Shown piece after piece: positions 4,271-59,453 of a DNA stretch of 64,000 nt (positions are counted from its first letter, which is position 1; each line of letters begins with the position of its first letter). The position numbers and the translations under genes are program-made. The notes below the pieces were generated by a model, which did not search any database, was not told where the DNA came from, and was given only the letters and a program-made list of their open reading frames with translations. Source of the stretch: an uncultured Gammaproteobacteria bacterium (lineage in GTDB: Bacteria > Patescibacteriota > Microgenomatia > CAZETR01 > Amesbacteraceae); NCBI GenBank assembly GCA_964358085.1, contig CAYHNU010000001.1, forward strand, positions 11,220 through 75,219. Reading direction: 5' to 3'.

Positions 4271-4300
4271 TTGATATTAAGCTCACGGACCTCGTATAAT
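4271..4300 (+). promoter_or_regulatory. Candidate sigma70-like promoter (TTGATA - 18 bp - TATAAT) in the divergent gap, driving the long plus-strand operon
   Basis: ttgata at 4271-4276 and tataat at 4295-4300, with an 18-bp spacer. ATG of the downstream gene at 4310. Confidence 0.3.
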
Positions 4301-4309
4301 CAAGTCTAC

Positions 4310-23453: not shown

Positions 23454-24431
23454 ATGGCAGTAGAAGCTCGAATTAATACAGTCTCTAATGGGGACACGGA
23501 GATTCTCGTCCCCCTGCACGGAGGTACCTATCAAGTGGTTTGGGAACGTTCTTGGGGGAGTGGTGTTTTTAATCCTTCCCCAAATCAATTTTCAGACTTT
23601 GCCCGAGGCATTAATTATGTAAAAGGGGGCGAGCACAAACTTCTTTTTGGTGTCACTCTTAACGGTGCCTGCCCGGCCGATTGTCTGGATTGCCCCTTCG
23701 GGCGCACAATTATGGCAAAACTTTATACCAGTCTAACTGACAAACAACTCACCCTAGCTCGTCCAATCAGCTCTTCAGAATTACAATCTGCTCTCGAGCG
23801 TGCAAAAGAAATAGCCATAAAGAATGGTATTCTAAGCCAAAACGAAGTGTTTGCAGCAGGAGCCCTTCTGGCGGGAGATCCTGGTTATAGCCCTCACATT
23901 CCCGACCTCATAGCCACGGTTAGCGGTTTTACTGGTTGTGAAGCCTGCCGTTGGTCTACGGTTGCGCCCGATACTGAAAACAATGTCTTGGGGGCTTTTA
24001 TAGAGGGAGCAACTCGAGCCAAGGAAGCCAACCCGACCCACACGCTCAGTTTTCAAGTCTCCCTTCATAGTACCGACCATCAGGAACGTATCAACCACAC
24101 GGGTGTTTCTCGTCTTCTGTCGATGCAAGAAATCTCAATGACATCTCAAAGAATCAGAAAAATTACTGGTAGAAAATTATCTCTTTCCTTTGTATTGCAT
24201 GAAGGATCTGTATTAGATCCACAAGTATTAAATGATAATTTCTCTCCTGACAACAACCTTATCTCTCTACGACCTATCTATTCTCGCATTACCAATCCCA
24301 TAAATCCGGACAGGTTGATAGAACTTTATTCAAAATTAAGAAGCGACAATTGGGATGTGGTTTATATGCCCCCAAGTCAAAGCTATACAGAAGGTGGGCG
24401 GCCAATTGAATTACACAACATGAGAAGCTAG
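23454..24431 (+). CDS. Hypothetical protein with CX3CX2C cysteine motif (possible divergent radical-SAM-like or metal-binding enzyme)
   Basis: 325 aa. 'GVTLNGACPADCLDCPFGR' = C-x3-C-x2-C, plus a later 'GCEACRW'. Visibly higher GC than flanking genes. Lone plus-strand gene between two minus-strand genes. Confidence 0.35.
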   Translation: MAVEARINTVSNGDTEILVPLHGGTYQVVWERSWGSGVFNPSPNQFSDFARGINYVKGGEHKLLFGVTLNGACPADCLDCPFGRTIMAKLYTSLTDKQLTLARPISSSELQSALERAKEIAIKNGILSQNEVFAAGALLAGDPGYSPHIPDLIATVSGFTGCEACRWSTVAPDTENNVLGAFIEGATRAKEANPTHTLSFQVSLHSTDHQERINHTGVSRLLSMQEISMTSQRIRKITGRKLSLSFVLHEGSVLDPQVLNDNFSPDNNLISLRPIYSRITNPINPDRLIELYSKLRSDNWDVVYMPPSQSYTEGGRPIELHNMRS

Positions 24432-25216
24432 GCGGGTGGATTGTAATAGCCCATTGCTGCCTTAATGGCCATTAAGAGGACATCAATTTTTTTTCTAAAT
24501 CCCACAATCTTAGTAGGGGTTTTGCCCTGCGGAGGGTAACATCGCACAACTGGAATCTCGACACTTCGTAGTCCCAATCGGTTGGCGCGAGCGGTCACAT
24601 AAAACAAAATTTCGTAATTGCTAAAAACATTTCTAAATAATTTCAACCTTGAATTAAGAAGTAATTTTCGGCTATGGGCCCGAAAACCATTACTTGTGTC
24701 CGTGTATATCTTACCAGCCGCTAAATTGAGAATTGGAGTGAACAAGTATCTGTTTGCAAATTTCCTTTCTAGCGGGGTATTGACCGCCCGGCCACCTTTT
24801 GCGTATCTGGATCCTTGAATATAATCAAAACCCTCATCTAGTTTTTTTATAAAACTCGAAATTGCTTCTACCCCATCTTTACCATTTCCATCCATCTGCA
24901 CTACCCCTCGATAACCATTTTTAAGCGCAAAGGTATAAGCCATCCGGTACTGCGCCCCCAATTTGCCCGGACCGGTTTTTACAAGCAAAGCTGTCACTCC
25001 TTGATTTTTCAAAAATTTCGGATCAGTCGAACCGTCAGTGCTACCTCCGTCGGCAATAATAATGTCCACCAACTTCGCATACTTCTTTACTTTTTGTAGT
25101 TGTTTCTTAAACTTATCTCCTTCATTAATAACAGGGATGACCAGACAATATTTGGTCTTTCTTTTCTTAAACTCGATCTTTTTAAAACTCGGCACCTCCC
25201 AATCCTTTTTCACCAC
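24428..25216 (-). CDS. GT2 polyprenyl-phosphate sugar synthase (DPM1/GtrB-like)
   Basis: 'YCLVIPVINEGDKF', 'IIADGGSTDGS', 'VVQMDGNG', 'GSRYAKGG'. 262 aa soluble. Divergently paired with the GtrA-like gene. Confidence 0.65.
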   Translation of the reverse strand: MVKKDWEVPSFKKIEFKKRKTKYCLVIPVINEGDKFKKQLQKVKKYAKLVDIIIADGGSTDGSTDPKFLKNQGVTALLVKTGPGKLGAQYRMAYTFALKNGYRGVVQMDGNGKDGVEAISSFIKKLDEGFDYIQGSRYAKGGRAVNTPLERKFANRYLFTPILNLAAGKIYTDTSNGFRAHSRKLLLNSRLKLFRNVFSNYEILFYVTARANRLGLRSVEIPVVRCYPPQGKTPTKIVGFRKKIDVLLMAIKAAMGYYNPPA

Positions 25217-25291
25217 TCAATTATACAGAAGAACTTACAACATCTGTATAATTGTCTTGTGGTACAAACTTTTATACAATTCGTGCGGTTT

Positions 25292-25648
25292 ATGTTTGTG
25301 GGCGGATTGGCAGTAGGGGTTGATTTTGTGGTTTATTTTGGGTTGTTATTTTTACTACCAGTTATTCCTATTTCTTTGGCCAAAGCTATATCTTACATCT
25401 GTGGAGCAACTGTTTCATTTATTGGCCACCGGTATTTTGTATTTGAAGCCCACGACCGCCACCCGCAGCATCAAATCCTGCCCTTCAGTGTTCTCTACAG
25501 CAGTTCTTTAGTAGCCAATAACTTAACCAACCTAGTTATTTTAAATCTGACGGGAGTAAAAATCTTGGCCTGGTTTGTGGCCATCTGCTTATCAACTACA
25601 ATAAATTATCTGGGCATGAAATTTGGGGTGTTCAGGAAAATTAATTAA
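25292..25648 (+). CDS. GtrA-family small membrane protein (polyprenyl-P-sugar flippase-like)
   Basis: 118 aa, 4 TM. 'FVRFMFVGGLAVGVDFVVYFGLL', 'GHRYFVFE'. 'KILAWFVAICLSTTINYLGMKFGVF' is typical of GtrA-like proteins. ATG at 25292. Confidence 0.6.
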   Translation: MFVGGLAVGVDFVVYFGLLFLLPVIPISLAKAISYICGATVSFIGHRYFVFEAHDRHPQHQILPFSVLYSSSLVANNLTNLVILNLTGVKILAWFVAICLSTTINYLGMKFGVFRKIN

Positions 25649-34759: not shown

Positions 34760-35520
34760 ACCCGTTTACAAAGACTCCGTTTTATCACTATTTTTTAGCT
34801 TTTGACTTAATTTCTAATCCAACAGCTAAAGTGTTAGACTTCGGCTGCGGCAGCGGCCAGTTCCTAGGAAAGTTACACGCGAAGGTCAAAAATGTATACG
34901 GTTACGACGTGGACCCGGAAAAAATTAACTTAGCACAACATCTCCATCCCCATGTCAAATTTAAATTAGGTAGAGTTGGTGCGCCTTTACCATATCCAGA
35001 TGCAACATTTGATGTTGTCAACATGTTTCATATCTTAGAACATGTATCCTCGGAAACAATGGCCATATTAGAAACCCATAGGCTGCTTAAAAAAAATGGC
35101 CTTCTTTTTCTAGCTTCACCTTATCAGGGACTTTTTTCTTGGGCAGATGCGGCGAACCTTCGATACCGCTTTCCCAACCTTCACAAATGGTTTTTTATTA
35201 CTTTTTTGGGAAAATATGAATATGAAAGACGATTTGTTAGTCGTCGTTCAATTGGAATGTATGGCGACTGTACAGATAATCGAAACTGGCACAAGCACTA
35301 CACCGAAGGAGAATTGCGCCAACTACTTGGAAATAAATTTACCATTACTGAAGTTCATAAGTTTTCGCTCTTTTATCCATTCCTGCTTATTCCCTACAAC
35401 TTAATCAACTATTTTTTTAAACCCAAATTCAACTCCATTCTTTGGCTGATTCACTTGGACAACTTAATTAATGCCGGAGGATGGTCTTACAATTTCCTAA
35501 TTGTAGCCAGAAAAAAATGA
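34756..35520 (+). CDS. Class I SAM-dependent methyltransferase
   Basis: 'VLDFGCGSGQFLGKL', 'FDVVNMFHILEHV'. ATGA overlap. Confidence 0.6.
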   Translation: MNPFTKTPFYHYFLAFDLISNPTAKVLDFGCGSGQFLGKLHAKVKNVYGYDVDPEKINLAQHLHPHVKFKLGRVGAPLPYPDATFDVVNMFHILEHVSSETMAILETHRLLKKNGLLFLASPYQGLFSWADAANLRYRFPNLHKWFFITFLGKYEYERRFVSRRSIGMYGDCTDNRNWHKHYTEGELRQLLGNKFTITEVHKFSLFYPFLLIPYNLINYFFKPKFNSILWLIHLDNLINAGGWSYNFLIVARKK

Positions 35521-37508
35521 AATGGTTTCTCACTAGCATTGTTCTATCCTTAAGTTTAGTAGCCATTTGGATGGGGCCCAAAAAGATGTTGGCTCATGCG
35601 GAAGAAGGTCTGCCATTTTATAATCCCTCACGCACTTTCCAAATATACAAGTATATCTGGCAAGACTCGAATTTGGGATTCATTAACCCCTTCTTAACTT
35701 CCAGGCTCACGCTTTACGGGTTCTCTGCCTGGCTTAATTCATTTGAGATCCCTAGCCAGGAGTTGTTTTTCTTTATATTAATTTTAACCCCCCTTGTCGT
35801 TATTCCTCCTCTATCCCAAACTCTCTTTCCCACCTTAAATGGCTCGGTTGGAAAATTTGCCGCTCTTTTTTATGTTTTTAACCTATTTGTCCTAACTCAA
35901 GTCTGGCACCGCTTCATCTACCCGCTGATTTTCCTGTGGTCATATCTCCCTTTGTTTCTTCTACTCTGGCTTAAATGGTTGGAAACAAGAGAAAAGAAGT
36001 ATTTATTTTATTTCATATTATCCAATTTCATTTTTTCAGATGTTTACGGATTAACCTCTTCCATCTTTGCTCTCTGGATACCGGCTGGAATTCTCTGGTT
36101 CAAGAACAGGCGAATCATTCCGGCCGTGGTAGCAATATTTCTCTGGTTAGTGACAACCGTTTGGTGGTGGTACCCATTAGTTGCCATAAAAGATAATCGC
36201 TTTAATAAATTTTTAAACCCGGCTCAAAATTTAATCTCACTTGTAGATGTCAGTAAATACTATCTTAATTCCGACATTTTATTATTAAAGCAAAAATATT
36301 ATTTTTCTCCCCAAACCATCTGGTTCAACTTTTTTTCCCGCCTACCCATAAATTATCTTAGCTGGATTTTTCCCATCTTACTTGCAATTGGTTCAGTTTG
36401 GGCTATCAAATCCAGATCAGGCAGACTATTAATTATTTGGCTTGTAATTGGTTGGTTTTTTATCAAAGGAGCCAATCCTCCTTGGGGTACCCAATTTTAC
36501 GAATGGTTGTTTAAGACCTTTCCCTTCACCATGGTCGTACGCAATCCCTACGAGAAACTTGGAGTGATTTTTCTTCTCCCTTATTGTCTGCTCATGGCTT
36601 TCGGTCTTTCCCGCATTCCACTCCGCTTCGGTAAGATACTTGTGATTTTTCTTGTCGGTTTTGTTTTACTGCGCCCCATGTGGACAGGCCAGGTTTTTTC
36701 CGGCTACCAAGTCCAAGTGCCTTCTTCATATAGTTTAGCAAATAGTTATCTTAACTCCGGTAGCAATTTACGTCTTTTGCAACTACCCTTTTTGCACGGA
36801 GCCGGGACCCAATACACCTGGGGTTATGGCGGCGAAGAACCGTCCAACTTCTTCTTTGATCGTCCATCCCTCTCTGGCACTTACTTTTCTCCCACCGATC
36901 CCTACTTATTTCTTTACAAATACATGCGTTCTCCCAAGACTTACCGCCTGCTCCAGCTCCTTGCTGTAGACACCATAGTTCTTCACAAAGATACTTTACC
37001 GGGACCAGCTTATCAGGAAAACTATGCTGGCTCTCGGGCCCTGCTTAGCCAAATGGAGCATATAAGTCTTGCTAAAACATTCCCCGATCTAGATATTTAC
37101 CAATTAAATCCCAATTTGCCAATTGGCTGGGGATATTTATCAAATCGGACGTTTTCCATCCCATCTCTTTCAGACGGCTTTGATTTGGTAGTCAACAACG
37201 ATTTGTTTAAACTCCATAGCGACTCGTTTGTGCTTTCACCCCAAAACCCAAAGAATCTTGGCGATAGCTTACCAAACTACACCATTACCAAGTTGTCACC
37301 AATTCGATACCTTTACCGCATCAAGCAAGCCACCTCCCCTTATATACTTATTTTGTCCCAAAATTTTAATCTCGGCTGGACGGCCGCCATAGATAAAAAA
37401 GAACTAGAAAATCATTTCCCAATTAATGGGTACGCCAATGGTTGGCTAGTTGATAAACCTGATGACTATGTTATTGATGTAAGTTTTAAAGCCTGGCCAT
37501 GGGATTAA
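35517..37508 (+). CDS. Large polytopic membrane protein with C-terminal extracytoplasmic domain (GT-C-like candidate)
   Basis: About 663 aa. N-terminal multi-TM domain. C-terminal '...FNLGWTAAIDKKELENHFPINGYANGWLVD' resembles the C-termini of the giant proteins ('GFANGWEIN', 'GYANLWEIN'). ATG at 35517 overlaps the upstream TGA. Confidence 0.5.
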   Translation: MKWFLTSIVLSLSLVAIWMGPKKMLAHAEEGLPFYNPSRTFQIYKYIWQDSNLGFINPFLTSRLTLYGFSAWLNSFEIPSQELFFFILILTPLVVIPPLSQTLFPTLNGSVGKFAALFYVFNLFVLTQVWHRFIYPLIFLWSYLPLFLLLWLKWLETREKKYLFYFILSNFIFSDVYGLTSSIFALWIPAGILWFKNRRIIPAVVAIFLWLVTTVWWWYPLVAIKDNRFNKFLNPAQNLISLVDVSKYYLNSDILLLKQKYYFSPQTIWFNFFSRLPINYLSWIFPILLAIGSVWAIKSRSGRLLIIWLVIGWFFIKGANPPWGTQFYEWLFKTFPFTMVVRNPYEKLGVIFLLPYCLLMAFGLSRIPLRFGKILVIFLVGFVLLRPMWTGQVFSGYQVQVPSSYSLANSYLNSGSNLRLLQLPFLHGAGTQYTWGYGGEEPSNFFFDRPSLSGTYFSPTDPYLFLYKYMRSPKTYRLLQLLAVDTIVLHKDTLPGPAYQENYAGSRALLSQMEHISLAKTFPDLDIYQLNPNLPIGWGYLSNRTFSIPSLSDGFDLVVNNDLFKLHSDSFVLSPQNPKNLGDSLPNYTITKLSPIRYLYRIKQATSPYILILSQNFNLGWTAAIDKKELENHFPINGYANGWLVDKPDDYVIDVSFKAWPWD

Positions 37509-46223: not shown

Positions 46224-48449
46224 ATGAGAAAAGTAATTATTATTCTAATAATATTGGCACTCGGTATTACCCCATTACTTACACAGGGTAATTTATATTT
46301 TGTAGGAGGAGACGACATGAGACTTTACTACATGTATCCCAAGGAATACATCCAAAATTTACTTTTGAATATAGTAACCGACAATTCAATTAGTGGAGGC
46401 AATATGGGCTACTATCCTGCCACCCATCCGGTTCCTCTAGTTGCATTAATATGGTTGGTAAAGACGCTAGTGCCTGCTAATACGCAGTTTGTTATGTATG
46501 GAATAAATTGGTCATTGTCCTTCCTCTTCTTCTACTTATTAATGGGTTTCTGGATATCAGATAAGTCTCGATTCAGTTTTTTTGCCAAAGTGGCTTCATG
46601 TCTGATTTATATATTTTCCCCATTTCTGTTCATGACCTTCTATAAACATCAAATGATCGTATTATTTTTAATAACCGCTTTCCCGGGGGTATTATATTTT
46701 TTTATCAAAAGTGTTCGACAACGTAATCCCCTATACGTTTTTTCGGCTTGTTTAATAATCTCTATCTTTAGTACTAATCTAAGCTCAATTCCGTGGATGC
46801 TTCCAATGTTTATTACAAGTACCCCATTGTTGTTTTGGGAGTTTTATAAGGACAAAAAGACTTTCTTTTGGCATGCCATTATTTTTGTAATTTGCTACTT
46901 TTTATTAAATATTTCCTGGATATTCCATTTAGTTTACTTGACTATCTATAATACTGGTTTAGTAGATGGTTTGAGTAGCTATCTTACGCCAGAGTTTTTG
47001 AAAGCAAATATTGCTGGTATTTTGGGGACATCCCGCCAATACAGTCCACTTAATGGTGTAGTTAGTCAACTGGTTATTGGGCTTACAAAAAACCTAACTA
47101 TAGTTTCATATGTCAATTTAATATTTATTTTCTTGATTGTTGCAGCTGGAGTTTTTATCAAAAAAGAGAGAAACAATATTTTAATTTCAGGATTCATTTT
47201 GGGTTTATTATCGCTACTTATTTCATGGATCATGTTAGCTCCCAATATTCAGACTTGGGGGCCTGATGCGTTCATCTGGTTATCTCTTAGAGTGCCCTTC
47301 TTTACCATGTTTAGAAATATGTCTGATAAATTTGCCTTACCAATGGCCTTTTTTTATGCTCTAACTTTGGGATCAAGCTTGGTAATTTTGGCCAATAGGT
47401 TTGCCAACAAGGCCTTACGATTGATTGTGCGTTGTTCGCTAAGTGTTGTAATTTTGATAAATATTTATCCACTACTGCAAAATCGATCTGAACATGTTGG
47501 GGTGGCAGCCAAGATGTCAGGTAGTTTTAATGATGATTTTAATGCCTTGGCTGATTATTTATTGACGTTAAAGAACCCATCAAGAATATTGTGGTTGCCA
47601 CTAAACTTTCCATCTTTTATTAATATTGAAGACAAGTATAATCCCGGTCATTATTACTCTGGCCCTTCACCCTTGCGTTTTTTAAGCAATCGTCAAGATT
47701 ATGCTGGACAATTTAGTTTTATTTCTTCAAATGACTTTGGAATTGCTGATAAGATTTTTCCTATGATAGATGCCAAAGATTTTAAAAGTTTTGGCAAACT
47801 AATTCAATTACGAAACGCGAGATATATCATTTTAGATAAGCAACAGCTTCCGGAGACTATGAAGCCATATCTTTATAACCACTACAGCATTGAATATGGG
47901 AAGTTAAAGATGCAAACAGAAGAATTTGTTAATGAATTCATTGGAAAGAAGCTTCAAGAATTTGGCACACGCTATGTTTTATATGAGATTAATCCGAAAT
48001 ATAATAATGATCGAATATATTTAACTGATAGTTACGAAATTTTTCCTAAAAACTTGCCAAATATTGAATACGAAAAAGTATCTGATTCTTTATACAATAT
48101 TAGCCTGAAAAGTATTAGTAAATCACGGAAATTAGTGTTTTTGGACTCTTACTATAAAGATTGGACACTTTATGTAAAAGGAGATTCAGAGACAAAGGCA
48201 TACCAAAAAGGTAAAAACGTTCCTGTCCAAGGATTTGCCAACGGTTGGGAAATTAATTTAGATGAGATTATAAAGAATTTTTCCAAGGGTTACTATACTA
48301 CCAACATGGACGGGTCAATAAATATTAAAATGACTCTCTACTTCGAACCCAGCAAATATAACAAGCCTACGCGTATTATTAGCGCGATGACCTTTGTAAT
48401 ACTTGGTTTGTCTCAATTGATTTTACTTGCAAAAAGAAACAATGTTTAA
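46224..48449 (+). CDS. Giant polytopic membrane protein, paralog 1 of 3 (GT-C-like; YfhO/AftD-type architecture hypothesis)
   Basis: 741 aa. 'LYFVGGDDMRLYYMYPKEY', 'FRNMSDKFALPMAFFYAL', C-terminal 'VQGFANGWEINLDEI'. More than 12 TM segments plus a C-terminal soluble domain. Confidence 0.55.
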   Translation: MRKVIIILIILALGITPLLTQGNLYFVGGDDMRLYYMYPKEYIQNLLLNIVTDNSISGGNMGYYPATHPVPLVALIWLVKTLVPANTQFVMYGINWSLSFLFFYLLMGFWISDKSRFSFFAKVASCLIYIFSPFLFMTFYKHQMIVLFLITAFPGVLYFFIKSVRQRNPLYVFSACLIISIFSTNLSSIPWMLPMFITSTPLLFWEFYKDKKTFFWHAIIFVICYFLLNISWIFHLVYLTIYNTGLVDGLSSYLTPEFLKANIAGILGTSRQYSPLNGVVSQLVIGLTKNLTIVSYVNLIFIFLIVAAGVFIKKERNNILISGFILGLLSLLISWIMLAPNIQTWGPDAFIWLSLRVPFFTMFRNMSDKFALPMAFFYALTLGSSLVILANRFANKALRLIVRCSLSVVILINIYPLLQNRSEHVGVAAKMSGSFNDDFNALADYLLTLKNPSRILWLPLNFPSFINIEDKYNPGHYYSGPSPLRFLSNRQDYAGQFSFISSNDFGIADKIFPMIDAKDFKSFGKLIQLRNARYIILDKQQLPETMKPYLYNHYSIEYGKLKMQTEEFVNEFIGKKLQEFGTRYVLYEINPKYNNDRIYLTDSYEIFPKNLPNIEYEKVSDSLYNISLKSISKSRKLVFLDSYYKDWTLYVKGDSETKAYQKGKNVPVQGFANGWEINLDEIIKNFSKGYYTTNMDGSINIKMTLYFEPSKYNKPTRIISAMTFVILGLSQLILLAKRNNV

Positions 48450-51400
48450 TTTCGTATTTTTTGTCAGGCTATTGGCAATTTGGGGAACGATTTTAGTTGT
48501 TTTTACTACTTTTTCTGTATACCAAGATATTAAACAGAATAAGCTGCTGAATTATACCGATACATATTCATCTTCTTCGGTGGATATTAAATCAGAATAT
48601 AAATCTTCTGGTATTTTAAAGTACGTATTTAAATTTTTGGCGCATGATGACTATCTTGGAACAATGACGTTTAAGTATTTCCGTCTTCGGGAAAATCAAG
48701 GACAGGTAATTTTTAGAATTAAAGAAATCTCTCAAAAAGATTGGTATGCTGAAAACCGTTATGATTTCTCTTACTTCGTCAATGATGATATTTATCAATT
48801 TGGTTTTCCTGAAATAAAAAATTCCAAAGGCAAACAGTTTATTGTTGAATTTGAAATTGTTTCCCAGACATTAATGAAAGATCAGAGATCACTAGACCTA
48901 AAGACAGCACCAATTTTAACCGTTAAATACGTATTTCCGCGCGATACTTACTACAAATCAGTTGGGAAGCTGTCAACAATTGTTTTAAACAGATCCATTT
49001 CAGTATTGACCGAGATGGATTATGTTAAGGTGTTTATTTCTTCGTTCCTAATTGCCATGTTTTTCCTTATTGCCCTTAGTCGTCAAGAAAATGAAACCGG
49101 GCCAAAAATAATAATTCGACAAAAGGTTTTACAAAAAAACGTACAAATTTTGAGTAATTGGACAAATAAAATTAATCCCTTTATTGTCCCTGGAGTTGTT
49201 TTGATAATCTTGTCGTTAGGATTTGTCTCTGGTAATTATGTATTGGCTGAACGAATGTCAGTTCAATTGTGGGCTACCTTATTTGGAAGTGTTGTTTTTT
49301 ACATTCTTCAGGTAACTATCTTTAATAGGCTGTCAAATTTGATAAAACATATTAATACAATTAGTGCTAATACTCTATCGATTTTGGACGACTTAATGAA
49401 CAAAAAACTTTTGTTATTAATGGGGACACTGTTTGTAATAGTATCGGGTATGTCTGCCACATATTATTTAGGTGGAGATGATTCCCGTTTATTTTACTTA
49501 TACCCTCAAGAATTTTTGGACAACTATATATCTAAAATTGTGTCCGATACTGGAGTTAGTCAACTTACAAACCTTATTCCTCCAACATCATTATCGGCCT
49601 TTACGATAATTATGATAGGCCTAAGAAACATATTGTATCAGTTCAATCTTCAGGCGTTGTTAAATTCGGCAAATCTTGTAGGTGGATTTTTTGCCTTTTA
49701 TTATTTATTAAATTACTTATTGAAACCAACAGATAAATACGAACGCGTAATTTGCGTCTTGGCTTCGTTTATGTATGTTTTTTCTATTTTTAATTTTTAT
49801 ACTCTATTAAATTCCAGATTGATAGCGGAATATTTAATAAGCTTGTTTCCACTATCTTTATATTTAGGTATTAAGGCAATACGTGAAGGAAAATTTTATT
49901 TATTTATTTTGGCTACACTTATTTGGTCGGCCTTTAGTTTCCTTTCCGTCACTCTTCCTTTATCTGGCGCAGTTTTGATTACTTCTATTCCTTTACTTAT
50001 TTTCGCGACATGGAAACACAAAATCAGGATAATTGCATATTTAGTGGGAGCAGGTCTACTGTTTGCTGTTCTAAATTTACATTGGTTTATGTTTATCCCG
50101 TATACAAACTTTTCTAAAAACATACCCGGTTCGTATACACCAAGCCTTACTTCTGTGGAATTCCGCAAGCAAAATGAGATTGGTATCAGAACAGTTTCCG
50201 ACATAAATAATAGTTTCTTTCCATTGCTAAATTCGTATCATCGAAAAATTCAGATAAATTTTAATTGGCCCCATTTACCTATATATTTATCTTGGTATTC
50301 AAAAATCTTAATACTTGGATATTTATTGATAGCTGTAGTCATCATAGCCGGCATTAGGATAGAAAAGAATAAACAAAGAAAAGGTATTTATGTTGCCTTA
50401 GTGATTAATTTTGTTTTAGCCGTTTATTTTTTTACGGTCAACATTGGTCCTTGGGGAGTTGATGTATTCTTGTGGTTGTCTAATCATATTCCTGGGTTTG
50501 TAATTTTCCGCAACATGTTTGATAAATTCGCATATGCAATGGCATTCCAATGGGCATTCTTAATTTCAGTCAGCTTAATTGTCATTGTTAAGTCCATTAA
50601 AAAAACTATGTTTAAAGAATATTTGTTATTTGCAATTTTTTTGATTGCAATAATCAATGCCAAACCCTTCCTTTTGAGAGAATTTGTAAATCTGCCGTAC
50701 TGGACTAGTAAATATAGCCATGATGGGATTACAGCTTTTAATAGTGATTATTTAGATTTGCTAAAATTTGTAAAAAATCAAGATGGCGTTGGTCGTTATT
50801 TATCACTACCTTTGTTAACTGGCAATAGTGTGATTGTAGAGGGAGAAAAACAAAAGGACCATTATTACGCTGGTGTATCACCACTTTTATTATTAACTGG
50901 TAAGAACGATATGTCTGGACTAATGAGCTTTGGTGAACATTCAAATAAAGTTTTTAAATGGCTTACTAAAAAAGATTACGATAGTTTTGGACAATTATTA
51001 CAACAATATAACGTTAAATATATAATTTTAAGTAACTCAACGTCTGAAGATCTTCAGCCAAGTTTCATGTTTTCTGATGGTTTGTTTTACTTGCAGACTA
51101 AAAGTTTTTATCAAAGCATAATTGGTCAGAAAGTAAGAGATTTTGGATCCAGGTACAGTTTATTTGAAATAAATTCTAAATATTTAAGTGAAAAGATATA
51201 TATTACCGATAGCCCTGGATCGTTTGTAAATCAAGAGGCCAATTTGTCTTTTAAAAAACTTGCTACTCATGAATATGAAATCGAAGTCTCGGATCTTAGA
51301 AAACAACTTTCACTGGTATTCTTAGACCCTTATCTTAAAGAATGGCAATTGCTCACACCGAGTGGAAAAGAACTGTCCACTGAATATCATCACCCTGTTT

Positions 51401-51630
51401 TTGGCTACGCCAATTTATGGGAAATTAATCCTCAAATTATTCAGATTGACTTTCCTAAGTCAGATTATCAAATAATGTCAGATGGAAGTTTGAAATTAAA
51501 GTTAAAGCTATACTTTCAACCATATAATTATTTTTGGACAGTAAATATTATATCTGCATCGGCATATGCGTTAGGAATAGCTTATGTATTGTTATCTATA
51601 TTCATTAAATTTATTAAAAAACAGAAATGA
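48442..51630 (+). CDS. Giant polytopic membrane protein, paralog 2 of 3 (extra N-terminal soluble domain)
   Basis: About 1062 aa. 'YYLGGDDSRLFYLYPQEF', 'FRNMFDKFAYAMAFQWAF', C-terminal 'VFGYANLWEINPQI'. ATG at 48442 (TTG alternative at 48427). Very AT-rich. Confidence 0.55.
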   Translation: MFNFVFFVRLLAIWGTILVVFTTFSVYQDIKQNKLLNYTDTYSSSSVDIKSEYKSSGILKYVFKFLAHDDYLGTMTFKYFRLRENQGQVIFRIKEISQKDWYAENRYDFSYFVNDDIYQFGFPEIKNSKGKQFIVEFEIVSQTLMKDQRSLDLKTAPILTVKYVFPRDTYYKSVGKLSTIVLNRSISVLTEMDYVKVFISSFLIAMFFLIALSRQENETGPKIIIRQKVLQKNVQILSNWTNKINPFIVPGVVLIILSLGFVSGNYVLAERMSVQLWATLFGSVVFYILQVTIFNRLSNLIKHINTISANTLSILDDLMNKKLLLLMGTLFVIVSGMSATYYLGGDDSRLFYLYPQEFLDNYISKIVSDTGVSQLTNLIPPTSLSAFTIIMIGLRNILYQFNLQALLNSANLVGGFFAFYYLLNYLLKPTDKYERVICVLASFMYVFSIFNFYTLLNSRLIAEYLISLFPLSLYLGIKAIREGKFYLFILATLIWSAFSFLSVTLPLSGAVLITSIPLLIFATWKHKIRIIAYLVGAGLLFAVLNLHWFMFIPYTNFSKNIPGSYTPSLTSVEFRKQNEIGIRTVSDINNSFFPLLNSYHRKIQINFNWPHLPIYLSWYSKILILGYLLIAVVIIAGIRIEKNKQRKGIYVALVINFVLAVYFFTVNIGPWGVDVFLWLSNHIPGFVIFRNMFDKFAYAMAFQWAFLISVSLIVIVKSIKKTMFKEYLLFAIFLIAIINAKPFLLREFVNLPYWTSKYSHDGITAFNSDYLDLLKFVKNQDGVGRYLSLPLLTGNSVIVEGEKQKDHYYAGVSPLLLLTGKNDMSGLMSFGEHSNKVFKWLTKKDYDSFGQLLQQYNVKYIILSNSTSEDLQPSFMFSDGLFYLQTKSFYQSIIGQKVRDFGSRYSLFEINSKYLSEKIYITDSPGSFVNQEANLSFKKLATHEYEIEVSDLRKQLSLVFLDPYLKEWQLLTPSGKELSTEYHHPVFGYANLWEINPQIIQIDFPKSDYQIMSDGSLKLKLKLYFQPYNYFWTVNIISASAYALGIAYVLLSIFIKFIKKQK

Positions 51631-51926
51631 TTGTATTAATGATTATTTTGGTTTTTTTTGATGCGTTTTTTTTGCCCGCTAAAAATCTCTTTTCCAATTT
51701 AATTTTTGTTTTAATCTTAGGGTTGGGAATTTGGAAAATCCATTATTATAAAAATTGGTTCATGTTGTCTTTAGTTTTTATTACCGCAGCAGTTGTCTTT
51801 TATTTGATTGGTAGTGAGTCTGCAAATGAAGTTATTGTCCAGAAGTTTTCGGACTGGACATTGATATCATTATTATTGGGTGCGTTGCGGTTGATCAAAT
51901 TACCAAATGATAAAAATAGGATTTAG
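51627..51926 (+). CDS. Small hypothetical membrane protein
   Basis: 99 aa with 3 hydrophobic segments. ATGA overlap with the upstream stop. Confidence 0.3.
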   Translation: MIVLMIILVFFDAFFLPAKNLFSNLIFVLILGLGIWKIHYYKNWFMLSLVFITAAVVFYLIGSESANEVIVQKFSDWTLISLLLGALRLIKLPNDKNRI

Positions 51927-52064
51927 TTTTTTTTCGTTTTTTTTGGCTTTAACAAGTCTTCTGTTGTGGTTTGGAAAGACGGCTAAAGCTCAATTTTTGA
52001 TAGAGATAGCTTTTGGCGTGATTGCAACATGTTTAGTTAGTTATTTATTTAGATTGACCAGAAA

Positions 52065-54647
52065 ATGATTCCCTTAATCGGTGCACATGACTTTCCATAT
52101 CTTTTTTTAGATCAAGCTGCTGGCCTGTTTAGATTGCCTCTTACTTGGGCGACACAAAGCCATGACTCTCTGGGGGTATTTACTTTATCTACTCTCTGGA
52201 ATTGGCCATACGGACTTCTTTACGGATTGGCTGGAAAAATCGGCTTAAACTTTACTCTTTCTACATTATTTTTCGGCATTCTCCCCGTATTTATCTTAGG
52301 CTGGTTTACTATTGGCAAACTACTCAAAAGCCATTCTCTCTCATCTCCTGCAAGATTTGTGGGTCAATTCCTATTTATAGCCAACACATACATCCTGATG
52401 CTCATTGATGGAGGCCAACTTAGTCTGGCCGTAGCCTATTCTTTCTTCCCTCTGGTTATTCTTTATCTTCCCTCCCGATTAAACTTTGTTTTGGCTATCA
52501 TTGCCATATCTTTCCTCGATATTCGTTATTTATACATCTTATTTATACCCATTGGCTTAAAAATATTTTTCGATTTTCGTCATACATTTAAATACTTAAT
52601 TACCGGATTATTCACGGGCTTAATTCTTATAGGTCTTCATAGTTATTGGATTTTGCCTTCCATCCTCTCCAAAGGTCCCTCTTTGCCCTCTACTTATACT
52701 CGTCCTGCTCAAGTAGACGCCCTTAGTTTTGCTAGCCTCTCTCATGCCTTTCTGTTGATTCATCCTCACTGGCCAAAGAATATTTTCGGCCAAGTAGCTA
52801 CTCCGTCGCCCTATTTCCTTCTCCTACCCATCCTTACCTTCCTTCCATTAGTCGTGTTTCGCAAAAATGTCACAATTGGTTATTGGTCAACACTAGCCAT
52901 CATCGCAGCCTTTCTTGTGAAGGGGAGTGGCTCACCTTTTCCTCAAGTATATAGTTGGTTGTTCTCTCATATTCCTGGTTTTTCTCTTTTTCGCGATCCG
53001 ACAAAATTTTTCCCCTTACTCGCCTTGTCATATAGTGTGTTGATCGCCTTTTCGGCAGACTTTATCTACATGCGCCGCAGGTCTTGGTTTATATTTATTC
53101 CTTTGTATTTAACGCTCCTGTTGGTCCCTATTTTTTTAGGTGAAACAACCGGCTTGTTTTCAAAAGCTCGTAATCAAGACTCTTATCTCAAGTTGGCAAG
53201 CTTTATGAACAACGATCTTTCTCCCGGAAGCTTGCTATGGGTGCCCTCCAAACCCCCCCTTGGCTATTCCAGCCCCACCCATCCGTCCATAGACGCCTTA
53301 ACTTTACTCGACAAAAGACCATTCGCCACTGGGGTGGTAGGTAGCTATGAACTCTTAAACTTTCTACGCGACGCTACCTATTCGGGAGAGCTTCTCAATA
53401 TCGCATCCATAAAATATTTAGCCATATCTAGCGTTGATCCCAAAAGGGACAGCTTAAAAATTGAAGACATTCAATACCGCGATATTTTTACTAAACAACT
53501 AACCTCCTTACCTTGGGTCAGCTCATATCAGAAATTTGGTCCTGTCACCCTCTTGCAAACCAAAATCCATCAACCCCTCTTTTTTATTCCGTCTACTACA
53601 ACTTTTGTGGTCGGTCCCGATGATATTTATAATACAGAAGTTAAATTGAGCAATAAGGCCCTAGTTTTTGTGGAAAGCCAACCTAATCTATTATCTCAAA
53701 TTCGCCAATTTCCTCAAGCCAAAATTCTTTTAAATCATAAAACTAATCTGGATGCAGCTGCCGCCCTTCTCCCCCGCGAAAGCTTTCTCTTTCCCAGCCC
53801 ACTTTTAAATTTTAGTCCTGATTCTTCCGGATGGTGGAAGAGGGAAGCGTCGGATTTAATTTCCTGGCGGGACTTTCTCCAACAAAAGTATAATTTAGAT
53901 AATCAAGATTTTGATTATGGAGGAGGATGGTCGATCTCGGAAGGCGCGCATACTTTAACGGTAAAACAGTCATCCAGTTGCCAATCGGATTGTATTCTTC
54001 TAGCTCGGGTCATGACTAGCCCCCAAGGAGGAAAAATACACTTTTCTAATTCCCAGCAAGCAATAGGTGAAATAGATACTATCAACTCCAATCCATCCCC
54101 ATCCACCATAACTCGTAAACTCACAGGTTATCAAGACACAGCCGACCAAATCTTTACTTACAATCGGGCGGATTTTCTCTGGCATGAAGTTGGCCAGCTA
54201 TCTGATTCCTCGCCAATTAGTATTTCCACCGAAGGCAATATTAATGTTGTAAATTCTCTGGCTGTTATTCCGTCGCGCTCATGGGAAAAACTTAAATCTC
54301 AAGCGGTCCAATTGGTAACAATTGCGTCTTCGCCTTCCAATGACAACCCCCAAGTGTCTTACCAGCAATTAGGCCCCGCTCATTATCGTGTAAAGGTGAC
54401 TGGATTGACCCATCCCGCGACTCTGGCTTTTGTTCAAAATTACGATCCTTTTTGGAAACTATCCGGCCAAACGCCCATTCCTTTATACGGTATGATTAAT
54501 GGCTTTTCCATTCCTGGCGCCGGTGAATATGATCTAATTTTTTCACCGCAGAAATATGTGAATTTTGGATTGGCAATAAGCGTTACAACTCTTCTTGTCT
54601 TGTTATTACTCCTATATAATGGCCATCGTAAACATGATTCAAAATAA
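52065..54647 (+). CDS. Giant polytopic membrane protein, paralog 3 of 3 (large C-terminal soluble domain)
   Basis: 860 aa. 'LFRDPTKFFPLLALSYSV' parallels the FRNMxDKFA motif of paralogs 1 and 2. C-terminal 'LYGMINGFSIPGAGEYDLIF', then a final TM 'LAISVTTLLVLLLLLY'. Confidence 0.5.
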   Translation: MIPLIGAHDFPYLFLDQAAGLFRLPLTWATQSHDSLGVFTLSTLWNWPYGLLYGLAGKIGLNFTLSTLFFGILPVFILGWFTIGKLLKSHSLSSPARFVGQFLFIANTYILMLIDGGQLSLAVAYSFFPLVILYLPSRLNFVLAIIAISFLDIRYLYILFIPIGLKIFFDFRHTFKYLITGLFTGLILIGLHSYWILPSILSKGPSLPSTYTRPAQVDALSFASLSHAFLLIHPHWPKNIFGQVATPSPYFLLLPILTFLPLVVFRKNVTIGYWSTLAIIAAFLVKGSGSPFPQVYSWLFSHIPGFSLFRDPTKFFPLLALSYSVLIAFSADFIYMRRRSWFIFIPLYLTLLLVPIFLGETTGLFSKARNQDSYLKLASFMNNDLSPGSLLWVPSKPPLGYSSPTHPSIDALTLLDKRPFATGVVGSYELLNFLRDATYSGELLNIASIKYLAISSVDPKRDSLKIEDIQYRDIFTKQLTSLPWVSSYQKFGPVTLLQTKIHQPLFFIPSTTTFVVGPDDIYNTEVKLSNKALVFVESQPNLLSQIRQFPQAKILLNHKTNLDAAAALLPRESFLFPSPLLNFSPDSSGWWKREASDLISWRDFLQQKYNLDNQDFDYGGGWSISEGAHTLTVKQSSSCQSDCILLARVMTSPQGGKIHFSNSQQAIGEIDTINSNPSPSTITRKLTGYQDTADQIFTYNRADFLWHEVGQLSDSSPISISTEGNINVVNSLAVIPSRSWEKLKSQAVQLVTIASSPSNDNPQVSYQQLGPAHYRVKVTGLTHPATLAFVQNYDPFWKLSGQTPIPLYGMINGFSIPGAGEYDLIFSPQKYVNFGLAISVTTLLVLLLLLYNGHRKHDSK

Positions 54648-55296: not shown

Positions 55297-55958
55297 AGGC
55301 AACAGACTTATCCTTATTCAATTTCTATAATCAAAAACATTTGACTGAAATTTCGAAAAAGGGATACTATAAAGAGCTGTCGTTATCCCAAAAACTACAA
55401 ATAATTGATGTTGCTTGTAACGATGGCACATTGACTAAAATATATAATAAATATGGAGATATTTATGGTGTTGATATGAATAAGAGATCGGTTACGGCCT
55501 GTAGAAAAAAGGGTATAGTTTGCATACATTCAGATATTGATTCTTTACCAGTAAAGTATCAGAATAAATTTGATGTTGTGGTTGCCACGGATATAATTGA
55601 ACATGTATTTAATACTGACAAATTCTTAATTAATCTAAAGAAGCTTCTTAGACCATGTGGGACATTACTGCTTACTACGGCAAACGTGGCCTCTATCGGC
55701 AGAAGAATAATGCTACTTCTTGGCAAGAATCCATTTCTAGAATATTCGACTAGATATCCAAATGTCGAAATTAACGTGGGTCACATTCGATACTACACAG
55801 TAAAAGATATGAAGATTCAACGGTCAGGATTGGGATTTAAGGACATCCGTATATATGGTGACAAGATAAATATTACAAGCACTATTTCGATTCCTCATGT
55901 AATTGCAAAGTGGTTTCCAAATATCTCCAGATACATGTTTGTGGAGTGCAGGATATAA
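55293..55958 (+). CDS. Class I SAM-dependent methyltransferase
   Basis: 'IIDVACNDGTLTKI', 'FDVVVATDIIEHVFNTD', 'LRPCGTLLLTT'. ATGA overlap. Confidence 0.55.
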   Translation: MKATDLSLFNFYNQKHLTEISKKGYYKELSLSQKLQIIDVACNDGTLTKIYNKYGDIYGVDMNKRSVTACRKKGIVCIHSDIDSLPVKYQNKFDVVVATDIIEHVFNTDKFLINLKKLLRPCGTLLLTTANVASIGRRIMLLLGKNPFLEYSTRYPNVEINVGHIRYYTVKDMKIQRSGLGFKDIRIYGDKINITSTISIPHVIAKWFPNISRYMFVECRI

Positions 55959-55971
55959 TTGTGTAGAGCAA

Positions 55972-57240
55972 ATGAACCAAAAACTCTTGGCCATATTCCA
56001 AACCCAAACATTGCGGCAATCGATTATCACAATTGTATCCACTTTTACCACCGCCGGCTTGGGCGCGGTATTTTATCTCCTTCTGGCCAGGATTATAGGT
56101 GCCCATGAATATGGATTATTCTCGGTAGTAGTTTCAATCTTGACCATTATTGTAACCTTTACTGACGTGGGTATGGGACAGGGGTTAGTTAAATTTGTAG
56201 CGGAAAATAGCGGCAGCGATAAATATCAACCTTATGTCAAAATTGCCCTGTTCACCAAAATTGCTATCGGCCTGGTGGTCAGTTTGGTTCTGTGGGCGTT
56301 TGCGAAGTCCCTGGCGGTTTCTCTCCTGCGCCAGCCGGAGGTAGCCAAGCTCCTGTCTATCACCGGATGGGGAGTTCTATCGATCATGCTTTTTAGTCTT
56401 TCCATATGTGTTTTTCAGGGACTGCAGAAGTTTATGCTCTGGGGCGGGCTGCAGGTTGGAGCTAATTTTTTCCGACTGCTTCTCCTCGGTTTTCTTCTGC
56501 TCGTCGCGGTGAAAATTGATTCAGTTTGGATGTTGGTCCTGTTTATTGCCGCTCCGCTTTCCGGATTTTTACTTTCCTGGTTTTGGCTGCCGGTCAGTAT
56601 TCTTAAAGCCAAAGTTACTTCCGTTCACTGGCACAATTTTTGGAATTTTAACAAGTGGACTGCCGCGCTTGGTATCACGGCCACTCTTGCTAGCCGCCTG
56701 GATACTCTACTCACCGCCCGATTTCTAACTCTATCTCAAACCGGTGTTTACGCCATGGCCATCACCATGGTGGCTTTTTTGCCCCAGCTGTCTTCGGCCA
56801 TCGGAGCCGTGACCGCGCCTAAATTTGCTTCATTTTCTGACTCCGATCACTCTCAAAAATATCTTGTCAAATCCACTCTTTTTTCGTTTGGTATTAGTGT
56901 AGGTGTGGCCCTAGCCATGATTCCGGCGGCCATGCTTGTCATCCGGTTTACCGGTCGGGATTTTTCTGCCTCTTTTACACCTTTCTTAATTCTGCTTCTG
57001 TCACTGGCAATATTCACTTCGCTTAACCCCGTCCGCGACAGCATTTTATATTTTTACAAACGCCCCCAGTTCTTCTTTTGGGCCAATCTCGCTCAAGCCG
57101 CTATCATTGTTGGGGCCGGGTTTTTGCTCATTCCCCGTTTCGGGGTCATTGGCACATCGTTGGCAGTGTTAATTAGCCACGTGTTTTTCGCTATCGCCAG
57201 TTGGTGGGAATATGAAAATTGTCGCGCACACGCTAGTTAA
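55972..57240 (+). CDS. Polysaccharide/oligosaccharide flippase, MOP superfamily (Wzx-like)
   Basis: About 422 aa, 12-14 TM. 'SIITIVSTFTTAGLGAVFYLLLARIIGAHEYGLFSVVVSI' is a typical Polysacc_synt N-terminus. ATG at 55972. Confidence 0.6.
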   Translation: MNQKLLAIFQTQTLRQSIITIVSTFTTAGLGAVFYLLLARIIGAHEYGLFSVVVSILTIIVTFTDVGMGQGLVKFVAENSGSDKYQPYVKIALFTKIAIGLVVSLVLWAFAKSLAVSLLRQPEVAKLLSITGWGVLSIMLFSLSICVFQGLQKFMLWGGLQVGANFFRLLLLGFLLLVAVKIDSVWMLVLFIAAPLSGFLLSWFWLPVSILKAKVTSVHWHNFWNFNKWTAALGITATLASRLDTLLTARFLTLSQTGVYAMAITMVAFLPQLSSAIGAVTAPKFASFSDSDHSQKYLVKSTLFSFGISVGVALAMIPAAMLVIRFTGRDFSASFTPFLILLLSLAIFTSLNPVRDSILYFYKRPQFFFWANLAQAAIIVGAGFLLIPRFGVIGTSLAVLISHVFFAIASWWEYENCRAHAS

Positions 57241-58021: not shown

Positions 58022-58775
58022 CCGTCGTAAATACTATGCCCTAGCTGCAAAAGCCAGTAAGCAGATAGGGGAGCATCCTGGCCTTTTGTATTTACAGAAA
58101 ATTGCCGGCCAGTCATCTAAGGTGTTAGATGTAGGTTGTGGCGAAGGGTCACGTTTAGTAACTTTGTTGCCTCCAGGCCAGTTTGCTTGGGGAGTGGATA
58201 TTGACAAATACGCTATCAATCTTGCCAAAAAACAGTATCCGGATCAGCATTTTCAAATCTATTCAGGAGAAAAATTGCCTTATAAATCAAATACCTTTGA
58301 TCTAGTTTATTCTGCTTTTGTTCTCGAGCATGTCCAAATTCCGGCAAATTTATTAAATGAAATGATCCGCGTCTGCCAGCCCAGAGGGAGCGTCATCCTT
58401 CTTTGTCCGAATTTCGGTGCTCCGAACAGAAGATCCCCAAATTCAATTCAAAATTCCATTTCAAAGCTCCTCACAGGTTTTATTAACGATTTTTTCAGTA
58501 CTTCTATTTTCCGTTGGGAAAAGGTCCAACCTAAACCGGTTTACAATCTGCCGGACGACGACACAACAATTGAACCTTATTTATTATCGCTCATTCGTTA
58601 TTTCCAAAGCAAAAAATTAACAATTAATTTAGCATCGTCTTTATGGAATCTGGAAGTACCAAGCCTTAATCCTCGAAAAATAATTGTCAAAATACTAGGC
58701 CAGTTAGGCATTTTTCCATTTAAATACTGGGGTCCTCAAATTTTTGTTTCAGCCATTAAAACCGTATCTGACTAA
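58011..58775 (+). CDS. Class I SAM-dependent methyltransferase
   Basis: '[16 protein letters not shown]', '[14 protein letters not shown]', '[13 protein letters not shown]'. Confidence 0.6.
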
Positions 58776-59453
58776 ACACCACACCGTCCACAGGCCGTCT
58801 TTCCAATTGATCTTTTTTCCTTCAGCATAGCTTCTTCCGGAGTAACTAATTCCCACTTCATAAATCCGTACTCCCATTCGAGCGACTTTAATTGTAAATT
58901 CCGGCTCAACGCCAAACCTTTTTTCCTGCAAGTTCAACTTATTAGCCACGTCTTTAGTAAAAGCCTTGTAGCAAGTCTCAATATCCGTCAGATTCAAATT
59001 TGTCAGACAATTGGACAGTAGCGTGATAAATTTATTACCCACATAGTGCCAGAAATATAACACCCGATGCGGCTGGCCTCCGGTAAACCTGGATCCAAAC
59101 ACCACGTCGGCTTTCTTGGCCAAAATCGGCGCCAGCAATAATTCGTATTCATCAGGATCGTATTCCAAATCTGCATCCTGAATTATAAACGTGTCCCCGG
59201 AAGCTATTTTTAGCGCATCTCTCACTGCCGCCCCCTTCCCCTCGTTCTTGGATTTATTAATCGTTTTTAATTTTTTGGATCTTGAACTTTGCTCGCGAAG
59301 CGCGACGGAGTCGATCTTGAACCTTGTCTTATCGGTAGATCCATCATTCACCACAATTATTTCTTTAACTAATTTGTTAGATTGCACTTTTCGAAGTACT
59401 CGGGCAATTGTCTTTTCCTCGTTGTACGCTGGTATAATTACAGTTAGTTTCAC
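58749..59453 (-). CDS. GT2 polyprenyl-phosphate sugar synthase (DPM1/GtrB-like)
   Basis: '[18 protein letters not shown]', '[10 protein letters not shown]', '[11 protein letters not shown]', '[10 protein letters not shown]'. 234 aa soluble. Confidence 0.65.

Follow-up and report, generated by a model that had tools for sequence, protein, structure and literature searches.

Three tandem membrane proteins in a Patescibacteria glycan cluster: probable AftD-like GT-C glycosyltransferases without a Pfam or NCBIfam model

We analyzed a 64,000-nucleotide stretch of contig CAYHNU010000001.1 (assembly GCA_964358085.1, positions 11,220 to 75,219 of the forward strand), referred to as the window, with respect to three large membrane proteins that are encoded in tandem on its plus strand and here termed P1, P2, and P3. 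Together with a fourth protein of 675 amino acids (aa) from the same window, they are likely to be paralogous glycosyltransferases (GT) of the GT-C type, related to AftD and belonging to an unmodelled family. AftD is the alpha-(1->3)-arabinofuranosyltransferase of Mycobacteriales (DUF3367/PF11847; PDB 6W98, 6WBX, 6WBY) and was found to be the nearest relative both by structure and by sequence. P1-P3 most likely work on the outer side of the membrane, where they would attach sugars to a surface glycan. That they are catalytically active and use a polyprenyl-monophosphate donor is what we infer, as is any statement on the identity of sugar and acceptor.

Genes, paralogs, and conserved motifs

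P1 is encoded at 46224..48449 (741 aa), P2 at 48442..51630 (1062 aa), and P3 at 52065..54647 (860 aa). The earlier note on this DNA, made from the sequence alone, had described three tandem membrane proteins of 741, about 1062, and 860 aa, and all three were recovered at these coordinates on the plus strand. The open reading frame (ORF) of P2 opens at a TTG codon at 48427, corresponding to 1067 aa; the identical database protein P0165 has 1062 aa, i.e., it begins at the ATG at 48442. Identical proteins were found in a metagenome-assembled genome (MAG) named 'Patescibacteria group bacterium' (locus tags AAB887_00570 and AAB887_00585).

In P1, approximately 11 predicted transmembrane (TM) helices are followed by an extracytoplasmic domain of 290 aa and a single TM anchor at the C-terminus. 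P2 contains a GT-C core and is a paralog of P1. P3 is a divergent AftD-like GT-C protein from a sister family; its outer part is a predicted 460-aa extracytoplasmic region that includes a beta-sandwich resembling carbohydrate-binding modules (CBM) of the CBM6/35/36 type, and it ends in a C-terminal TM anchor. This agrees with the architecture proposed before, i.e., many TM helices combined with a large extracytoplasmic domain. Specific to P2 is an N-terminal extension of approximately 320 residues before the GT-C core (P2 residues 1-343, 48442-49470). It is composed of one TM helix, a predicted extracytoplasmic segment of approximately 165 aa, and four further TM helices according to a hydropathy scan, which gave overlapping segments and is only a rough guide; topology was otherwise taken from AlphaFold helices. 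The extension is kept in orthologs of 1034-1064 aa and matched no family.

The GC content of P1 and P2 together is 32.4%, whereas the initial 16 kb of the window have 46.8%. The suggestion that the block is markedly AT-richer than the 5' third of the window therefore applies to P1 and P2, but not to P3 with its GC content of 41.8%. Individually P1 and P2 have 31.5-33.6% and the flanking genes 36-45%, so that the two close paralogs are unlike the rest of the operon in composition.

Judged from their sequences, P1 and P2 are clear paralogs, with 30% identity (E=1e-91) spanning the full length of P1, and P3 is a distant but true homolog. Pairwise similarity of P3 is barely detectable (E=0.005 and 3e-5). 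When a profile of 33 P1 relatives (A1) was aligned with a profile of 41 P3 relatives (A2), the hhalign probability was 99.9% (E=1.4e-31) over 454 columns, in an alignment that takes in the complete membrane domain and extends into the first part of the soluble domain. The proposal that the three proteins form a family of their own therefore has to be modified: they are homologous within one superfamily, but P3 is found in a separate, larger sister family.

The motifs that had drawn attention to the proteins were all found. The N-terminal loop motif reads GGDDMRLYYMYPKEY in P1 (residues 28-42) and GGDDSRLFYLYPQEF in P2, with the GGDD at residues 28-31 of P1 (nucleotides (nt) 46305-46316) and at nt 49471-49482 in P2. 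The mid-protein motif is FRNMSDKFA in P1, FRNMFDKFA in P2, and LFRDPTKFF in P3; FRNMSDKF occupies residues 363-370 of P1 (nt 47310-47333), FRNMFDKF nt 50506-50529, and FRDPTKF residues 309-315 of P3 (nt 52989-53009). The C-terminal motif was found as GFANGWEIN and GYANLWEIN, with the ANGW of P1 at residues 672-675 (nt 48237-48248). Because of the strength of the P1/P2 alignment and of the P1/P3 profile match, these motifs are not chance resemblances.

Mean column identity of a 42-sequence superfamily alignment was 15%, and the residues that survive are those of the motifs. P1 K369 is invariant (42/42) and R364 is retained in 41 of the 42 sequences. The Asp of the first extracytoplasmic loop (EL1), in the column of P1 D31 and 7-10 residues past TM1, is found in 40 of 42 and is replaced by Glu in the 675-aa paralog. 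The Asn of ANGW (P1 N673) is present in all sequences and P39 in 41. In P3 the invariant EL1 Asp is D9 (nt 52089-52091), and the P3 ORF begins right at the EL1 loop.

The fourth superfamily member is encoded on the plus strand at 35481..37508 (675 aa, or 663 aa from an ATG at 35517). It matches P1 in BLASTP with E=3e-9 and profile A1 with an hhalign probability of 98% (E=1.9e-13, 481 columns). It carries Glu at the EL1 acidic position as well as the motifs VRNPYEK and YANGW, and lacks a C-terminal TM anchor. Pieces of the P1-P3 signature had been noted in this ORF (as 35517..37508), which proved to be a genuine homolog, and in one at 28333-30099, for which no kinship was detectable (BLASTP E>=3, hhalign 0.1%). 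The latter lies on the minus strand and encodes a 588-aa polytopic membrane protein with TGDDYLGLW directly after the first TM helix, i.e., a GT-C-like EL1 signature. It had zero Pfam or NCBIfam matches and may represent another unmodelled GT-C family.

Fold, membrane topology, and relation to AftD

AlphaFold2 models made from family alignments had a pLDDT of 84.4 and a pTM of 0.85 for P1, and of 90.9 and 0.86 for P3. The N-terminal membrane domain is polytopic with the helix arrangement of GT-C enzymes, and a conserved acidic residue is located in the first extracytoplasmic loop after TM1. Foldseek comparison of P1 with the PDB gave six matches at E<=1e-3, three of which were AftD (best E=9.5e-7) and three STT3.

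The relation to AftD was also found at the sequence level. PDB sequence searches with P1, P3, A1, or A2 found nothing, and only a broader superfamily profile (A3) reached AftD, with E=2.4e-9 for 6wbx_A and E=2.8e-9 for 6w98_A and nothing else significant. Positions 21-260 of A3 align with AftD residues 26-256. The A3 segment 'ggdDsrL' is placed on AftD 'SPDTKLD', which contains native K39 and D41 (the deposited sequence has a three-residue offset), and the conserved Arg (P1 R33) pairs with K39. Both K39 and D41 were found essential by mutagenesis (bioRxiv 10.1101/2019.12.22.885152). When compared to AftD E251, K361, and D474, K369 and R364 of P1 are positioned similarly to K361, but the profile of that region gave no sequence alignment with AftD; that P1 K369 corresponds to AftD K361 is our hypothesis.

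In the P1 model, approximately 11 TM helices are followed by a soluble domain (residues 419-707) and one C-terminal TM helix. Clusters of Lys and Arg, counted by eye from the helix boundaries of the model, were found at the N-terminus (RK), at residues 113-116, 162-167, 209-212, 313-316, and 392-403, and at the C-terminus (KR). They mark the ends of every predicted cytoplasmic loop, while the outward loops are poor in Lys and Arg. By the positive-inside rule both termini of P1 are therefore predicted to be cytoplasmic, and EL1, the R364/K369 motif, and residues 419-707 to be outside. The DD and FRNxxDK motifs are thus predicted on the extracytoplasmic face, where the earlier note had expected them, and not on the cytoplasmic face. 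This orientation is in agreement with the experimentally known topology of AftD (bioRxiv 10.1101/2019.12.22.885152).

Searches against named families were negative for P1, P2, P3, and the 675-aa ORF, with nothing in Pfam at E<=1. This includes YfhO (PF09586), DUF3367 (PF11847, the AftD family, whose gathering score was not reached), PMT_2 (PF13231), PMT (PF02366), and STT3 (PF02516). The absence of Pfam matches is specific to these four proteins, since six other ORFs of the window do match PMT_2 or PTPS_related. The motif WWD(Y/W/F)G is absent from P1, P2, and P3. Membership in YfhO was rejected, as the resemblance is limited to overall architecture; from the former proposal of YfhO- or AftD-like transferases, the AftD half is upheld by the profile match and the YfhO half is not. 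Eight distant superfamily members, some of them of AftD size (approximately 1230 aa), were also scanned against Pfam and NCBIfam; they gave no GT-C or DUF3367 match and nothing in Pfam at E<=0.1, and only weak CBM_4_9 and MmpA matches.

MmpA (NF053599) was the sole NCBIfam family matched by P1-P3, with 43.5 bits for P3, 20.3 for P2, and 14.7 for P1. All are far below the cut-off of 210 bits, and none of the three can be counted as a member. The match covers approximately 110-150 residues, extending from the TM helices near F-R-N/D-x-x-K-F into the beginning of the soluble domain; in P3, residues 263-413 align with positions 268-419 of the model (E=1.6e-11). MmpA (Rv0226c/NCgl2761) is homologous to the first 11 TM helices of AftD (PMC8698533), and a preprint suggests from Foldseek that it may itself be a glycosyltransferase (bioRxiv 10.64898/2026.07.31.741767). 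Since MmpA is a relative of AftD and a suspected glycosyltransferase, the match points toward AftD and not away from glycosyltransferases. No strong match to a non-glycosyltransferase family was found.

It had been suggested that the proteins form an undescribed GT-C clade. This is correct in so far as a model is lacking in both Pfam and NCBIfam; fold and likely chemistry, however, are familiar. No earlier description of the family was retrieved from the literature searched on GT-C in Patescibacteria and on DUF3367, although an earlier account could still exist.

Proposed function and alternative explanations

The basis for proposing a lipid-phosphate-linked donor is the genome context, as the window encodes GT2 proteins resembling AglJ, DPM1, and PpgS together with a GtrA-like protein. 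The GtrA-family gene (25100..25648, plus strand) encodes a small membrane protein matching PF04138 GtrA_DPMS_TM with E=1.2e-18, a candidate flippase for polyprenyl-phosphate sugars. Two GT2 genes are candidates for polyprenyl-phosphate sugar synthases. One (58749..59453, minus strand, 234 aa) matches PF00535 with E=6.6e-32 and, below threshold, the NCBIfam models for AglJ (8.7e-35), PpgS (5.7e-19), Dol-P-hexose transferase (6e-16), and ArnC (4.6e-12). The other (24428..25216, minus strand) adjoins the GtrA-like gene and matches PF00535 as well as, below threshold, AglJ (E=9.6e-11) and Dol-P-hexose transferase (E=2.5e-7). The GtrA-like and DPM1-like GT2 genes previously described as neighbours thus exist, but at a distance of 4-21 kb and not adjacent.

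In the scheme that we propose, the AglJ/DPM1-like GT2 proteins would load a sugar onto polyprenyl phosphate at the cytoplasmic side of the membrane, the GtrA-like protein would flip the loaded lipid, and the GT-C paralogs would then move the sugar onto a surface glycan at the outer face of the membrane. The glycan precursor would be built by the GT4, GT2, and methyltransferase proteins of the cluster and exported by its Wzx-like flippase. Each paralog would have an N-terminal bundle of approximately 11 TM helices. The active site would face the outside of the cytoplasmic membrane and comprise the acidic/basic EL1 motif (GGDDxRL in P1 and P2, A-x-D-F-P in P3) and the Arg/Lys motif F-R-N/D-x-x-x-K-F, which is placed at the outward end of one of the later TM helices. 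The large beta-rich external domain, including the CBM-like part of P3, probably holds the acceptor glycan and would be anchored by the single C-terminal TM helix in P1, P2, and P3. Each paralog probably makes a different linkage or works at a different step.

A three-component scheme of GT-A, GtrA, and GT-C is established for Gram-positive wall glycans (PMC8035078). All three component types of these systems (a CsbB/GtrB-type GT2, GtrA/GtcA, and YfhO, GtlB, or GacL) are present in the window, and P1-P3 resemble YfhO, which likewise combines numerous TM helices with a large external domain and ends in a TM helix. Several Gram-positive GT-C members also lack a Pfam domain, and the GT-C members of these systems in general give AftD as a top HHpred match (PMC8035078). 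The window differs in that P1-P3 are separated from the GT2 and GtrA genes, and in that four AftD-like and seven other GT-C genes, i.e., at least 11, are found within 64 kb, which is far above the number in the described Gram-positive systems.

AftD itself differs from P1-P3 in several respects. Identity to the window proteins is only approximately 13%. AftD has approximately 1400 aa and three CBMs compared to the 741-1062 aa of the window proteins, among which only P3 has a CBM6/35/36-like module. It has 16 TM helices with a C-terminal TM13-16 bundle that interacts with acyl carrier protein, whereas P1-P3 end in a single TM helix. Arabinogalactan is not known from Patescibacteria. No genes of the decaprenyl-phospho-arabinose pathway were seen in the window, so that the sugar donor of P1-P3 is probably unlike that of AftD. 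An AftD-type arabinofuranosyl role is also unlikely because the candidate donor synthases are GT2 proteins of hexose or N-acetylhexosamine type; no UbiA/DprE-type genes were seen among those ORFs of the window that were annotated.

Three other explanations have to be weighed against a stepwise glycosyltransferase. P1-P3 could be oligosaccharyltransferases of the STT3, AglB, or PglB type, transferring a Wzx-flipped polyprenyl-diphosphate oligosaccharide en bloc to a protein acceptor (e.g., an S-layer protein or a pilin) or to a cell-wall acceptor. STT3, AglB, and PglB do appear as second-tier structural matches and a Wzx gene is adjacent, but AftD matches better in both structure and sequence, with approximately 580 aligned residues versus 390-430. 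The STT3 Pfam model is not matched, and the WWDYG signature is lacking, P3 having only a GWWKRE far from the last core TM helix. Moreover, three or four tandem paralogs are better suited to stepwise elaboration than to a single en bloc transfer, and we consider this explanation unlikely. The finding of MmpA as the only curated match raises the question of whether P1-P3 are non-catalytic scaffold or substrate-handling subunits with a GT-C fold, comparable to MmpA or PIG-U and keeping a glycolipid or glycan in place for other enzymes or transporters. MmpA differs in being approximately 475-545 aa long with a single small external domain, and its role in Mycobacteriales lies in the acetylation and transport of trehalose mycolate, a pathway absent from Patescibacteria. 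Its scores, at most 43.5 of 210 bits, are low, and it is itself suspected of being a glycosyltransferase (bioRxiv 10.64898/2026.07.31.741767). The near-invariance of the EL1 acidic residue and the R/K motif at a mean identity of 15% indicates selection on an active site, and the EL1 motif aligns with essential AftD residues. A scaffold role is accordingly given little credence. A Wzy/WaaL-type polymerase or ligase, or an unrelated transporter with a superficial GT-C likeness, would be in keeping with large polytopic proteins with big external loops in a Wzx-containing cluster, and Foldseek does list transporters of the major facilitator superfamily (MFS) and the ATP-binding cassette (ABC) type. 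These were found only at E>0.04 with TM-scores of approximately 0.1, and the fold searches give no support to this highly improbable explanation.

The assignment of P1-P3 as AftD-like glycosyltransferases also has points against it. The sequence link to AftD is confined to the N-terminal 240 residues, and a profile of the FRN-motif region (A4) misses AftD and gave only chance matches (Rap1 and a phage protein). Within the link, the partner of the conserved Asp is AftD D37, and D41 lies inside an insertion, making exact residue equivalence uncertain. No GT-C model of Pfam or NCBIfam recognizes P1-P3, and the one curated family that does match, MmpA, is annotated as a lipid-delivery protein and not as an enzyme. 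The GtrA and DPM1-like genes are located kilobases from P1-P3, and the seven other GT-C genes of the window could be the ones that they serve. Finally, P3 in the lineage of the window is without TM1. With these points taken into account, we still regard AftD-like glycosyltransferases as the probable identity of P1-P3 and the 675-aa protein.

Family distribution, small ORFs, and the surrounding cluster

When 1.84 billion representatives clustered at 50% identity were searched exhaustively with A1 (HMMER), 4,461 proteins passed a threshold of E<=1e-3, of which 2,263 remained at E<=1e-10 and 482 at E<=1e-30; some of these proteins are longer, with approximately 1230 aa. By word-seeded searches, P1 was found to have 44 homologs, P2 28, and P3 166, all of them without a precomputed Pfam domain. 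Loci in GTDB species genomes belong to Amesbacteria, Microgenomates, Levyibacteriota, Woesebacteria, Moraniibacteriota, Saccharibacteria, Berkelbacteria, Peribacteria, and unclassified Patescibacteria. Many other loci (among them L006, L009, and L010) are third-party annotation (TPA) MAGs titled 'uncultured Gammaproteobacteria'; their content looks like Patescibacteria and we regard these titles as unreliable. As far as labels can be trusted, the family is thus centred on Patescibacteria. One match of 25% identity was located in a 1.67-Mb record titled Fluviibacter phosphoraccumulans (L032, CP126743.1).

Patescibacteria, also known as the candidate phyla radiation (CPR), are ubiquitous, mostly uncultured, and episymbiotic. 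To our knowledge, their cell-surface chemistry is essentially unknown. The window represents one lineage in which at least 11 GT-C genes, including the four AftD-like ones, are devoted to one glycan cluster of 50 kb. Members of the present family are annotated as 'hypothetical protein' everywhere, because there is no Pfam or NCBIfam model. A hidden Markov model (HMM) for the family would re-annotate thousands of proteins. It would also flag those steps of CPR surface-glycan synthesis that take place outside the cytoplasm and that could plausibly determine host attachment. The family also carries the range of AftD, which is essential in mycobacteria, far beyond Mycobacteriales, and its 741-aa homologs are small, simpler subjects for structural and mechanistic study. 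Its use would be in annotation and in CPR envelope biology; the chemistry is the expected one and not mechanistically surprising.

The gene order P1-like, P2-like, a small ORF of approximately 100 aa, and P3-like recurs in Microgenomates Gr01-1014_16 (L001), GCA_042569045.1 (L002), and an Amesbacteria genome (L004), and more loosely in L003. This unit is always found amid GT4, GT2, and methyltransferase genes, and a Wzx gene is located downstream of it in L001 and L002. In the window, the small ORF (51627..51926, plus strand) encodes a membrane protein of 99 aa and its start overlaps the stop codon of P2. Its syntenic homologs have 95 aa (L001), 113 aa (L002), and 111 aa (L004), with 19 invariant columns in an alignment of the window, L001, and L002 copies. 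Nothing in Pfam matched the 99-aa protein, which may be a subunit of a complex.

TM1 normally belongs to the GT-C core. Like its close orthologs (46% identity or more), P3 begins at 'MIPLIGAHDFPY', directly at the EL1 loop, while more distant members of the P3 family have a hydrophobic TM1 of approximately 20 residues before the same A-x-D-F-P motif. An in-frame upstream extension of P3 that would regain TM1 is excluded by stop codons. A mini-ORF of 53 aa with two TM helices (51907..52068, plus strand) precedes P3, and its stop codon overlaps the P3 start (ATGA). Mini-ORFs of approximately 43-57 aa with two TM helices overlap the P3 start where TM1 is missing, i.e., in the window, in L001 (approximately 15670-15797), and in L004 (13675-13848); in L002, P3 retains TM1 and there is no such mini-ORF. 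The second helix of the mini-ORF and the basic patch before it align with TM1 of unsplit homologs. This is suggestive only, with the mini-ORF as a candidate for the detached TM1 and P3 as a possible naturally split GT-C protein. A wider interpretation, possible but doubtful in our opinion, would be that of a Patescibacteria-wide GT family (a new CAZy family once characterized), in which P1, P2, the protein of approximately 100 aa, and P3 form an assembly line and TM1 of P3 is supplied in trans by the 53-aa mini-protein, translationally coupled to P3 within the lineage of the window.

From approximately 12.8 kb to its end, the window is one large glycan-biosynthesis cluster. It contains at least 10 GT4 and at least 10 GT2 genes, approximately 10 class-I and FkbM methyltransferase genes, an epimerase/dehydratase, and a sugar nucleotidyltransferase. 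A Wzx-type flippase (Polysacc_synt) is encoded downstream of P3 at 55903..57240 on the plus strand (PF01943 E=3.9e-19, PF13440 E=2.2e-18). A GmhA-like SIS protein followed by a 573-aa fusion of NTP-transferase and GHMP-kinase (38211-40522, plus strand) suggests that a nucleotide-activated heptose is made for the glycan. At the same place L001 has a PfkB kinase, a GT9 heptosyltransferase, and a CTP-transferase/HAD fusion.

The other GT-C genes are located in the 5' part of the window. Six ORFs between 1677 and 12005 gave matches to PMT_2 or PTPS_related models, and in four cases the gathering score was exceeded; one is found at 1677-3065 on the minus strand, and five are in direct tandem at 4271-12005 on the plus strand (529, 516, 500, 527, and 531 aa). 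The seventh, at 14554-15714, is PIG-V-like.

A plus-strand ORF at 61002-62372 was rejected as an additional superfamily member, with an hhalign probability of 0.6%. It encodes 456 aa with approximately nine TM helices, has no Pfam match, and could, as a guess, be a Wzy-like polymerase. Another plus-strand ORF, at 16343-18208, encodes 621 aa with a single N-terminal TM helix and has no Pfam match. A Bro-N domain, typical of phages and viruses, is encoded at 12007-12843 on the plus strand (PF02498, E=1.1e-7), between the PMT_2 tandem and the GT2/GT4 block. Just past this gene, from approximately 16 kb on, the GC content drops from 46-51% to below 40%.

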